Below, piece after piece: positions 53,301 to 56,300 of a stretch of DNA of 64,000 nucleotides. A program made the position numbers. Every line of letters begins with the position of its first letter. Position 1 is the stretch's first letter. This DNA comes from Escherichia coli (lineage in GTDB: Bacteria > Pseudomonadota > Gammaproteobacteria > Enterobacterales > Enterobacteriaceae): assembly GCF_041248615.1 (NCBI RefSeq), contig NZ_CP158426.1; one strand, 5' to 3'.

Positions 53301-56300
53301 GAATCTCAATTGTTCCCCGTCTGCGCCAGTGACGAACACGGAGAAGCACTGTTTAACCTCGCGCAGCCACACTTTCCGTTACTGAATTACAGCCGCAACT
53401 CCTACATGGGGCGATTGATTAATCGCACCCTGACGCGCCACAGTGAGTTGAGTTTCAGCACCTTTTTTGTCTCTTCGATGAGCGAGCTTTTAAAGCAGGT
53501 TGCCCTCGACGGCTGTGGGATTGCCTGGCTGCCGGAGTACGCCATCCAACAAGAAATTCGCAGCGGGCAGCTCGTTGTACTGAATCGGGAAGAACTGGTG
53601 ATCCCGATTCAGGCCTACGCATACCGGATGAATACCCGCATGAATCCAGTTGCCGAACGCTTCTGGCGTGAACTGCGCGAGCTGGAGATTGTGCTTAGCT
53701 GACATTCTCCAGCGTCGCACTACGCCAACCGCCATTATCCCAGACCAGATCAAACGTTAGCGGTTCATCGTCGTGGTACAGCATTATCTCAAGGCTGATC
53801 GCCAGCGTGTGGCAGTACGCTTCTTTCAAATTGACCTGCAACGCCGCAATCCGTGGCTCATGAAATAACAGTGCAGAACGCAGCTGACGGCAATACCAGC
53901 TCTGGAGATGTTTGTCGCTCTGGTTATGCACTTGCCACTCGGGCATGCCTGAAACAAGTAATGACGGTAATGCCGAATGAGGAGAATTAAAAAGAGTGAG
54001 GAGATCGCTGCATACCGATTTACGCAGCAATGACGTTTTATTGCCTGAAATTTCAGGTAAAACAGCCTGAAGTGATTGGCGCATCATTTTGCGCACTCCT
54101 GACGTTTAGCAACATATGCGGCTTGCCCTGAACACCGGGCACCACTGTATTGATGCTCATTTTCCATAGCCATTCCCTTTTGTTCATTACATCCATGTCA
54201 GTCTGAGACAGGCCTGAATCCTGTCAGCAAAGTATAAAACCTTACTTGCCTATGAATATCTACTGACTTTTCAGGAAAAAAGTCATGATTTGATAAAAAT
54301 CATCAAACTCAAAAAAAAACCGCTACTATATTCTGAATATTCCGAATAGTTACGTAGATGAAAATACTTGTCACCGCCGCCACTTAATTTCGGTGGGGAA
54401 TTATTTATTTCCGCATAATCAGCCATGCATTATTTGAAACAATTAGTTTGTAAATAATATAAATTGATAACATATCAAATACATCAAAAATACCATTCAC
54501 AGGCATTATTAATATAGACATCAATATAGCAACATCAAATTCCAATTAGTAATAAGATATGCTTTTAAATTGCATGCAAATAATTTTAAATGAGCGTTTT
54601 TTGATACTTTAGAGTGTTTCCCACCCTTTAATATCACTGTGTAGAGTTGATATCACTACAACAGAAACATGCATGTCATTTGTTTACTTCTCTTTTTACT
54701 ACAGAAAAATTTATCTATTTTTCTAAGCATCAGTGAAATACTCATAAAGGTAACTATTATGTCTATGCCATTAAGCAATGCCCTTCAGAGTCAAATTATT
54801 ACAGATAATCACTTCCTTCATCATCCAAAAGTCGACAATAAGTTAACACGTGAATATGAATATGCACGCATGGATACGGAAAATATCTATCTTCTGCCTC
54901 TTGCTCGTGGCAATAACCATAATTACGATGGAAAAAGTGTTGTCGAAATTAGAAAACTTAATATTAGCAAACAGTCCTGGCCATTTAATTATGTGACAGA
55001 AACATGCAGAGAATTCAATGGTATTACAACAACAGGACGTATGCTCTATCGAAACTTGAAAATCACCTCAGATTTAGACAAAATATATGGTGGTATATGT
55101 AAAAAGGCGCATGCTGCCACAGAGTTAGCGGAAGGATTACAACTAAATTTATTTATGAAGAGCCCCTCCGATCCTGTTGAGGACTATACAGTTCATGAAA
55201 TAACATTAGGCCCTGGTTGCAATGTTCCAGGTTATGCCGGAACCACGATAGGATATATTTCAACCCTTCCAGCTTCTCAGGCAAAAAGATGGACCAATGA
55301 GCAGCCAAGAATTGATATCTATATTGATCAGATAATAACTGTCTCAGGGGTGGCAAATTCTTCCGGATTTGCCGTTGCCGCATTACTTAATGCTAATATT
55401 GGAATGGGAAATGACCCAATAATTGGTATAGAAGCCTATCCCGGTACCGCGGAGATCCATGCAAAAATGGGGTATAAAGTTATCCCCGGTGATGAAAATG
55501 CGCCACTCAAACGCATGACTCTGCAACCGTCATCTCTTCCAGAACTGTTTGAATTAAAAAATGGTGAATGGAATTATATTGGTAAATAACCACTGAGAAG
55601 AATGAGTACTAATATTCAGGTTATACAGATAGTTAAACAATACCCTGTAATTTAGAAAGTAATACTCATTGCGACTTCTTAATTTAAGAAAGCGCAAGGA
55701 ACGTTTACCCTTGCGCTTATCATAATAAGTCAGGCGTCGACTTTATCCAGCGGCCATGAATCAAACAGATAGCCGTCAAAATAAATATCGTCAACGTTCG
55801 AGAATTCCAGCAGACGTTGTTTAACGTTTTCCAGATGCTGCCACATTGCCAGCTTCGCCGCACGGGCATCTTTTTTGATTAACGCGGCGAGGATCTGTTT
55901 GTGATCGCCCAACCACTCTTTGCGATACAGGCTGTCATCGAGATGGCTGTGCAATTGGATCCACATTGGATTGTTTTCCCGCCACTGCCAGGACTGACGG
56001 AATAACTCCACCAGCATGCTGTTATGCGTTGCTTCGGCAATGGCGAGATGGAACTGCATATCACCGCTTTCGCTGCTACCCGGCGCGCTGGAAGCCAGTT
56101 CACGCTCTTCCAGTTGCAATGCCTGACGCATTTTGACGATATCTTCGCGGGTAGCCTGCAAAGCGGCAAATTCCGCGATGTTACTTTCCAGTAACTGACG
56201 CGCCTGTAACAGCTCAAAAGGACCGGCATCATTGCAGACGTTGGCATCCGGACTGTCTGTGTTGTGGCTGCCTGAGCTATCAAGAACATAAATACCGGCA

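Follow-up and report, generated by a model that had tools for sequence, protein, structure and literature searches.

Promoter islands, as described by Shavkunov, Panyukov and Ozoline, are AT-rich stretches of at least 300 bp that carry dense promoter-like sites, are covered by H-NS, are poorly productive and lie by acquired genes. The K-12 counterpart of the AT-rich distal part of the DNA considered here is one of 78 catalogued islands, listed as '4554354_526 yjiC/iraD' (PMC3661553). The same region is known from work on the K-12 iraD promoter and leader (Merrikh 2009, Park 2017, Sass 2021/2022), in which two iraD promoters were mapped, P1 at -417 and P2 at -137 (Sass et al. 2021), and translational coupling between the leader peptide gene idlP and iraD was demonstrated (Park et al. 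2017). Through IraD, the locus connects RpoS stability with the Csr system and with DNA damage and starvation.

We analyzed this region in a 64-kb stretch of an Escherichia coli chromosome (the window). The promoters, CsrA sites, coupling, small-ORF translation and H-NS occupancy discussed below are known from K-12 work by others; the sequence identity and intactness of these elements, the base composition, the conservation pattern and the presence or absence of the locus across genomes are established here. The interval is very probably the already characterised iraD-yjiC control region of E. coli, consisting of a conserved P2/idlP part and an H-NS-coated, fast-evolving distal part. Its published elements, promoters, small ORFs and H-NS binding are already known from K-12, and the region is real but ordinary; as a discovery it carries little weight, the locus being already at textbook level in the literature.

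Layout and elements of the iraD-yjiC spacer

The divergent regulatory spacer between iraD and yjiC occupies 54088..54758 (671 bp, 32.8% G+C). The locus is a 100% match to an E. coli O169:H41 chromosome, its annotation is the same as in K-12, and the K-12 synteny hypT > < iraD ... yjiC > < uxuR is present, with hypT and iraD convergent (8-bp overlap) and iraD and yjiC divergent. Alignment with the 672-bp K-12 spacer gives 98.4% identity with 11 differences, all of them distal, the proximal 238 bp being identical; five differences alter YtiD residues, one lies in the HusR motif, and one T fewer is found near the yjiC end. The features of the region are as follows.

52791-53702, plus strand: hypT (annotation)
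53695..54087, minus strand: iraD coding sequence, anti-adaptor of RssB, GPW_gp25 fold family (RefSeq; Pfam PF04965, E = 1e-13)
54084..54167, minus strand: idlP (ORF27), iraD leader peptide, 27 codons (annotation, ORF confirmed; peptide WP_120795393.1)
54096..54100, minus strand: iraD Shine-Dalgarno sequence AGGAG (sequence)
54160..54168, plus strand: putative DnaA box 'at -81', TTTTCCATA (sequence match)
54163..54221, minus strand: CsrA sites BS4, BS3, BS2 and BS1, with GGA at 54163-65, 54174-76, 54192-94 and 54219-21
54224..54236, minus strand: promoter P2, -10 TATACT at 54231-54236, start A at 54224 (-137; published start mapped via alignment)
54283..54426, minus strand: ytiD (ORF47), translated small ORF in the P1 leader (annotation)
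54320..54335, plus strand: HusR (YnfL) gSELEX motif, one mismatch to K-12 (motif located in the sequence)
54405..54506, minus strand: ytiC, 33 aa in the K-12 annotation (b4720; Pfam PF23685 YtiC, E = 3e-26)
54473, minus strand: ORF23 of Park, an internal ATG of the ytiC frame (fusion end at -376 fits an ATG at -386)
54504..54538, minus strand: promoter P1, -35 TTGATG at 54533-54538, -10 TATATT at 54511-54516, start G at 54504 (-417)
54539..54758, no strand: most AT-rich part, without an assigned element (26.8% G+C for 54505-54758)
54759..55589, plus strand: yjiC (DUF2686), AT-rich, highly variable accessory gene (Pfam PF10887, E = 2e-148; 39.0% G+C)

A first-pass annotation had described 54097-54758 as an AT-rich intergenic interval between the convergent hypT/iraD pair and an AT-rich yjiC. 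The gene layout and the AT-richness are as it described, but its boundary on the iraD side is not, the annotated iraD start being the ATG at 54087 and not the GTG at 54096. Nor is the interval empty: RefSeq places idlP, ytiD and an ORF in the ytiC frame there, on the iraD strand. Most of it is iraD leader, with a CsrA-controlled translational coupling device that had been overlooked, and this seemingly empty spacer is densely functional: besides its two promoters it contains several sites for regulators and three small ORFs that are translated. The suggestion that it may hold the iraD promoter proved right for both P1 and P2, whose hexamers and start-site positions are intact in this strain.

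P2, which in K-12 is sigma-70 or sigma-S dependent, starts so as to leave 3 nt before the BS1 GGA, in agreement with Park et al., and the GGA motifs at -78, -89, -107 and -134 agree with the CsrA positions footprinted in the same study. The proximal ~200 bp, of ordinary composition and strictly conserved, provide P2 and a 137-nt leader in which CsrA, on the K-12 evidence, binds the GGA sites over the idlP ribosome-binding site. Since the TGA stop of idlP overlaps the ATG of iraD (ATGA), CsrA represses iraD by blocking its translational coupling to idlP. The iraD Shine-Dalgarno sequence itself is sequestered in a hairpin and does not bind CsrA (Park et al. 2017). This structure rests on published structure mapping and not on folding here: at -39.1 kcal/mol the P2 leader folded no more stably than shuffled sequences (z = 0.25), and no exceptional structure sequestering the Shine-Dalgarno sequence was reproduced. 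The putative DnaA box is backed by genetics and EMSA (Sass et al. 2021), but DnaA ChIP-seq detected no binding at iraD, so direct control by DnaA is disputed.

The distal AT-rich ~470-530 bp carry P1, induced by stationary phase, ppGpp and replication stress, together with the P1 leader (ytiC, ytiD), the HusR site (CCGCTAGTATATTCTG; PMC12844172) and ~250 bp facing yjiC. P1 was also found independently by a consensus scan (TTGATG-16-TATATT), with the published start 7 nt past the -10. In K-12 it is sigma-70 dependent and responds to AZT as well as to late log phase with induction (Sass 2021, Park 2017); RNA-seq under AZT gave inductions of 260x for ytiC, 33x for ytiD, 18x for idlP, 14x for iraD and 11x for yjiC. 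VanOrsdel et al. 2018 include the ytiC product, under the name 'ytiB', in their set of new small proteins.

The yjiC promoter or promoters must lie in 54539..54758. A relaxed sigma-70 scan of the plus strand returned many equally weak candidates and none that was convincing, and the literature searched yielded neither a mapped yjiC start site nor hns-mutant data for yjiC. The gene is not permanently silent, as its 11-fold AZT induction in K-12 indicates, and in Shigella it is co-induced with horizontally acquired genes; a silenced yjiC promoter is a plausible candidate here. An Rfam scan of 53600-55000 found no known RNA family, a snoRNA match there being attributable to chance (22 bits, where the gathering score is 50; E = 0.16). 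A repeat search of the region gave just short matches at chance level. One terminator-like hairpin on the plus strand (54380-54396; a single match against 0.6 ± 0.9 expected) lies inside ytiD, its sequence varies among strains, and it was rejected.

Base composition and H-NS

The 662 bp of 54097-54758 have 32.5% G+C (67.5% A+T) against 49.8% G+C (50.2% A+T) for the whole window, and just 2.35% of all 662-bp segments are as low in G+C. The lowest-G+C segment of this length in all 64 kb (29.8%) begins at 54229, within the interval. This composition is uneven, with G+C of 48.2% in the 137 bp by iraD (54088-54224), 30.7% in 54225-54504 and 26.8% in 54505-54758. TpA steps occur at twice the window density. 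The long A/T runs remarked on in the first-pass annotation are present (A9 at 54311, A6 at 54276, T6 at 54597), but they are not in excess: the 15 runs of at least 4 compare with 13.0 ± 2.5 in dinucleotide shuffles, a number that composition predicts.

The high-affinity H-NS motif TCGATAAATT has one 9/10 match in the interval (54708-54717), and its density equals the window average, so that there is no enrichment; the variant TCGATATATT has 5 matches at no more than 2 mismatches, which places the interval in the top 0.9% of segments and is expected from its AT-rich composition. Promoter-like sites number 4 per 662 bp in a simple consensus scan, 6x the window mean of 0.67 (top 2.8%), islands being defined by PlatProm, and composition-matched shuffles in this same non-PlatProm scan give 4.2 ± 2.5.

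That the DNA is bound by H-NS, as had been proposed from its composition, is backed by the literature for K-12. The table in PMC3661553, from which we take H-NS occupancy second-hand and not from the primary ChIP tables, records H-NS on the island in two data sets, those of Kahramanoglou (MG1655) and Oshima (W3110), and links the island to predicted foreign genes; for yjiC/iraD it gives no H-NS credit to the third data set, that of Grainger. We infer that this occupancy carries over to the present strain. The distal part and yjiC behave as fast-evolving accessory DNA, which would then be coated by H-NS, a protein that binds and spreads along AT-rich DNA. H-NS would functionally silence yjiC and P1: until overridden by other inputs, it would keep yjiC, and probably P1 too, at a low basal level of transcription. 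H-NS is also said to inhibit iraD expression.

Alternatively, the AT-richness may be the passive legacy of fast-evolving, recombining accessory DNA together with that of ordinary promoter and leader sequence, which H-NS may touch without controlling; regulation would then run wholly through ppGpp, sigma-S, SspA, HusR, CsrA and possibly DnaA. This reading draws on the fact that the demonstrated iraD regulators in the literature consulted are all factors other than H-NS, and on the counts above, in which A-tracts, H-NS motifs and promoter-like sites do not go beyond composition. It is also in keeping with the behaviour of the locus under AZT: because the median expression of known H-NS targets is unchanged in the K-12 RNA-seq, induction of the iraD-yjiC locus without global relief of H-NS targets need not act through H-NS. 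Between species, moreover, the distal spacer is unconstrained, being unalignable between E. coli and E. albertii, yet composition and length persist (654 bp and an equally AT-rich 31.0% G+C in E. albertii). Against these points stand the two independent ChIP data sets that reportedly put H-NS on the K-12 region, the reported inhibition of iraD by H-NS, and the co-induction of yjiC with acquired genes in Shigella, and overall we regard a purely passive origin as unlikely.

Variation among strains and species

The two parts of the spacer differ in how they vary. Among 10 strains, the 201 bp of 54084-54284 (P2 and idlP) have zero variable sites, compared with pi = 0.02 in iraD, and the IdlP protein is identical in all ten. 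In yjiC, pi reaches 0.036 and the gene is frameshifted in one strain.

This pattern bears on whether the interval is mainly coding for functional small proteins, YtiC, YtiD and IdlP, with a composition that reflects those genes. Translation of all three has been shown in K-12, Pfam has a YtiC family, and the invariance of IdlP fits such a role. However, ytiD has 9 non-synonymous and 0 synonymous changes among the 10 strains, with one frameshift and one loss of the start codon, one strain carries a premature stop in ytiC, and both ORFs are absent from E. albertii and from the short haplotype described below. In K-12, a ytiD lacZ fusion is expressed, but stop mutations in ORF23 and ORF47 were without effect on iraD (Park et al. 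2017), and the ORFs together cover 306 of the 671 bp. The IdlP peptide itself diverges between lineages (17/27 and 20/27 identical), whereas its 27-codon length and stop/start overlap are kept in E. albertii and in both the long and the short haplotype, which suggests that the function lies in translation itself and not in the peptide. Taken together, a primarily protein-coding role for the interval is very improbable.

In 4881 of 5426 E. coli genomes, coverage extends over the complete iraD-yjiC locus. Another 512 (9.4%) have a short, diverged form without yjiC, the distal spacer, P1, ytiC and ytiD, in which uxuR lies directly upstream of a diverged iraD and just the P2/idlP device is retained. 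The long and short forms are deeply diverged (78% identity) between flanks at 95-97%, and the short form is also found in E. whittamii and other cryptic Escherichia lineages; E. albertii has the yjiC module. New but minor, then, are the short diverged form in about 9% of genomes and the invariance of the 201-bp P2/idlP segment in ten strains.

We tentatively suggest that the distal module (P1, ytiC, ytiD, the 250 bp and yjiC) may be an accessory cassette that is old but evolves fast, and that iraD control may be rewired according to whether a strain has it, although this is the less probable outcome. If true, short-form strains would be without P1-driven induction of IraD in stationary phase and under replication stress, and their stabilisation of RpoS in response to DNA damage would differ. 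A modest, testable lead on differences among strains in RpoS control comes from the invariance of the P2/idlP core, the lack of constraint on ytiC and ytiD, and the existence of two deep haplotypes, with and without P1 and yjiC.

Curvature and relation to known systems

The earlier expectation of curved DNA was not borne out by our curvature prediction, and it is highly improbable that intrinsic curvature from phased A-tracts, acting as a structural promoter element or H-NS nucleation point, is the key property of the interval: A/T runs do not outnumber what composition predicts, the AA/TT periodicity (9.5-11.5 bp) is unremarkable (power 7.6, the window mean being 5.3 ± 2.0, with 12.5% of segments as high), and the minimum end-to-end/contour ratio of 200-bp fragments, 0.881, is just at the 10th percentile of the window. 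Against this can be set three local curvature peaks in the top 1% (~54485, ~54600 and ~54714; 19 degrees per turn, the 99th percentile being 15.7), two of them flanking P1; they are soft evidence from our own wedge-model script, which also gave the ratio.

Compared with described cases of xenogeneic silencing, such as the fimB/nanC and leuO regions of the same table, the locus is similar in that AT-rich DNA flanks an AT-rich, variable gene, yjiC, and H-NS ChIP is reported. It differs in that it is old and not a recent import, since it is present in E. albertii, and in that derepression of yjiC in hns mutants was not found in the literature searched. Promoter islands are resembled in the high AT content (A+T is far above average over at least 300 bp) and in TpA density; promoter-like sites are dense as well, at the level that composition predicts in the simple consensus scan. 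Contrary to the 'silent' picture of islands, the iraD-yjiC spacer holds a genuine and strongly inducible promoter, P1, as the response of ytiC to AZT shows. Among systems in which an upstream ORF is coupled through overlapping stop and start codons, idlP-iraD is the published case itself, with no difference. The closest counterpart is the K-12 iraD promoter and leader region, with which the present locus has its position, its synteny and every published element in common.

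The iraD-yjiC regulatory region and its published promoters

The AT-rich DNA between iraD and yjiC is, with certainty, the iraD-yjiC regulatory region of E. coli. The surrounding stretch (53690-55600) is 100% identical to E. coli O169:H41 Res13-Lact-PER13-34; its identity to the majority of other E. coli, K-12 among them, is about 96-97%. Relative to K-12, the window is reversed. The interval as first drawn (54097-54758) was bounded by the GTG of a mechanical ORF (54096); iraD is accepted to begin with the ATG at 54087, which makes the spacer 54088-54758, or 671 bp (672 bp in K-12). 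It shares 98.4% identity with its K-12 counterpart, with 11 differences, all distal to position -238 from the iraD ATG. That counterpart has already been dissected experimentally (Sass et al.; Park et al.). The published K-12 elements were placed in the window through the spacer alignment.

Genes and regulatory elements of the region
52791-53702, + strand: hypT (annotation)
53695-54087, - strand: iraD (annotation)
54084-54167, - strand: idlP, the 27-codon leader ORF (ORF27), ending in ATGA (annotation)
54160-54168: putative '-81' DnaA box, TTTTCCATA
54219-21, 54192-94, 54174-76, 54163-65: GGA motifs of CsrA sites BS1, BS2, BS3 and BS4, respectively (sequence match)
54224, - strand: start (A) of iraD promoter P2, -10 TATACT at 54231-54236 (alignment mapping)
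54320-54335: HusR (YnfL) gSELEX motif, one mismatch to K-12
54283-54426, - strand: ytiD (ORF47) (annotation)
ending at 54405, - strand: ytiC-frame ORF (annotation)
54504, - strand: start (G) of iraD promoter P1, -35 TTGATG at 54533-54538, -10 TATATT at 54511-54516 (alignment mapping)
54759-55589, + strand: yjiC, 39.0% G+C (annotation)
55730-56503, - strand: uxuR (annotation)

The expectation that the region holds the iraD promoter is borne out twice over, as both published promoters map there: P1 (-417), induced in late-log phase, and P2 (-137), used in all growth phases, with ppGpp and the replication inhibitor AZT acting on both (Sass et al.). P1 is served by sigma-70 and P2 by sigma-70 or sigma-S (Park et al.), and the P1 -35/-10 pair was also recovered independently by a blind consensus scan. 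CsrA binds the four leader GGA sites, the 27-codon ORF is translated with its stop overlapping the iraD start, and blocking this translation is the sole route by which CsrA represses iraD, so that control is by translational coupling; ORF23 and ORF47, between P1 and P2, are translated without effect on iraD (Park et al.). Direct control by DnaA is contested: Sass et al. proposed repression through the -81 box on the basis of EMSA and box mutants, whereas DnaA ChIP-seq by Stringer et al. 2024 placed no DnaA at iraD, which was suggested to lie outside the DnaA regulon.

The published P1 start sits inside the K-12-annotated ytiC start ATG (54506-54504). A 33-aa YtiC made from P1 would need a leaderless mRNA beginning 2 nt further upstream; otherwise P1 yields only the 22-aa form from an internal ytiC ATG at 54473, which is ORF23. 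The PGAP call in the window strain, a 38-aa ytiC from 54521, starts upstream of the P1 start and runs over the P1 -10, and this start is probably wrong.

Composition, H-NS binding and a possible yjiC promoter

The interval is AT-rich, as the first-pass annotation stated, with 32.5% G+C against 49.8% in the window, a value as low being reached in only 2.35% of 662-bp windows; the 64-kb minimum (29.8% per 662 bp) starts at 54229. G+C content falls from 48.2% in the 137 bp beside iraD through 30.7% in the stretch separating the P2 and P1 starts to 26.8% between P1 and yjiC. Long A/T runs are indeed present (A9, A6, T6), but their number adds nothing beyond composition (15 runs of at least 4, versus 13.0 +/- 2.5 in dinucleotide shuffles). 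TpA steps occur at twice their density in the window, and promoter-like sites at six times theirs, although the latter do not exceed the expectation from composition. Other low-G+C troughs in the window (per 662 bp; RefSeq annotation) lie at about 20430-22700 (31.3%; mcrC 3' end and a large DEAD/DEAH helicase gene), about 27700 (36.0%; within yjiT) and about 39150-41900 (30.2-32.2%; a pentapeptide-repeat pseudogene and an SdiA-regulated-domain gene), and probably represent more accessory DNA of this AT-rich kind in the 'immigration control' neighbourhood. IraD itself gives a hit to the gp25 family of phage baseplate wedge proteins (PF04965, E = 1e-13), consistent with a phage-derived origin of this gene, which adjoins the AT-rich DNA.

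Expression of iraD is reportedly inhibited by H-NS, a result attributed to Battesti et al. in 2012. For K-12, the proposed H-NS binding is supported by the promoter-island table of Panyukov and Ozoline (PMC3661553), in which '4554354_526 yjiC(-)/iraD(+)', one of 78 K-12 islands, overlaps a GIST genomic island, is associated with predicted foreign genes, and is H-NS-bound in two of three ChIP data sets (Kahramanoglou, MG1655, and Oshima, W3110, not Grainger). Assuming that the coordinates in the table are those of U00096.2, the island runs from about -662 to -137, covering the whole AT-rich part and ending at P2, given a 1,977-bp offset to NC_000913.3 that we inferred ourselves. Because the spacer is so nearly identical to that of K-12, binding would be expected to carry over to the window strain. 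The H-NS nucleation motif TCGATAAATT has one 9/10 match in the interval (54708-54717), at average density. In K-12 RNA-seq, AZT induced ytiC 260-fold, ytiD 33-fold, idlP 18-fold, iraD 14-fold and yjiC 11-fold, and known H-NS targets as a group were unchanged.

Curvature, in contrast to binding, was not supported. Phasing of AA/TT at about 10-11 bp is nothing unusual, an equally high score being reached in 12.5% of windows, and wedge-model paths of 200-bp fragments, computed with our own script and Bolshoy-Trifonov parameters, show no unusual overall bend (10th percentile of the window), with three local peaks in the window's top 1% (about 54485, 54600 and 54714).

A putative silenced promoter for yjiC is plausible. 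Consensus and relaxed scans of the + strand gave many candidates, all weak, as is typical of AT-rich DNA. The gene is inducible, as its response to AZT indicates, and in Shigella RNA polymerase inhibitors co-induce yjiC and acquired genes. The literature searched gave neither a mapped yjiC start site nor hns-mutant results for this gene.

Two haplotypes and the conserved leader

The hypT-uxuR interval exists in two deeply diverged forms in E. coli. The long form, with iraD, the AT-rich spacer and yjiC as in the window, was found in 4881 of 5426 genomes (at least 80% query coverage), and the short form in 512 of the 5426. In the latter, iraD is about 78-82% identical to the window and the roughly 260 bp upstream 78%, homology ends at 54351, and a 413-bp spacer (35.6% G+C) lacking P1, ytiC and yjiC runs directly to uxuR. 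The flanking genes nevertheless remain 95-97% identical, which gives the interval the look of an old polymorphism that recombines. The short form is shared with E. whittamii and further Escherichia lineages. In E. albertii the arrangement is the long one: yjiC is 72% identical, and the spacer measures 654 bp (31.0% G+C), with no alignment possible over its distal 400 bp (48-56% identity); composition and length thus persist where sequence does not.

In the short-haplotype strain P4, an additional pseudogene fragment ('putative PEP-binding protein', about 420 bp) separates hypT from iraD, so that these genes, overlapping in the window, do not overlap there. A 605-bp contig labelled Bacillus coahuilensis m4-4 (NZ_ABFU01000118.1) is E. 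coli hypT-iraD-leader DNA at 98-99% identity, almost certainly a contaminant of that draft assembly.

A 21-bp tandem palindrome, TATTCGGAATATTCAGAATAT (54328-54348, iraD strand), is a candidate regulator site. In the short haplotype (78% identical), where the sequence around it is poorly conserved, 19 of its 21 positions are kept; in E. albertii 9 bp of it are deleted. The palindrome overlaps the HusR motif, and its distance upstream from the P2 start is about 104-124 bp.

The 201 bp at 54084-54284, which take in idlP, the CsrA sites and P2 with 60 bp upstream, do not vary at any position across ten diverse strains of the long form, against a nucleotide diversity (pi) of 0.0205 for iraD and 0.036 for yjiC. 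In these strains ytiD has nine substitutions (9 non-synonymous, 0 synonymous) as well as a frameshift and the loss of its start codon, one case of each, and ytiC a premature stop in one of the ten. Five YtiD residues differ between the window and K-12, and neither ORF was found in E. albertii or the short haplotype; both look translated yet unconstrained.

Nothing at the iraD-yjiC spacer is new to the field, and the comparative results are new but minor. Among them, the 27 codons and ATGA overlap of the leader ORF are kept in the long form, the short form and E. albertii, as are the GGA motifs of BS2-4 in the short form, while the peptide is altered between lineages (17/27 and 20/27 identical). 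Conserved length and overlap with a changing peptide fit the model of Park et al., in which the act of translation matters rather than its product.
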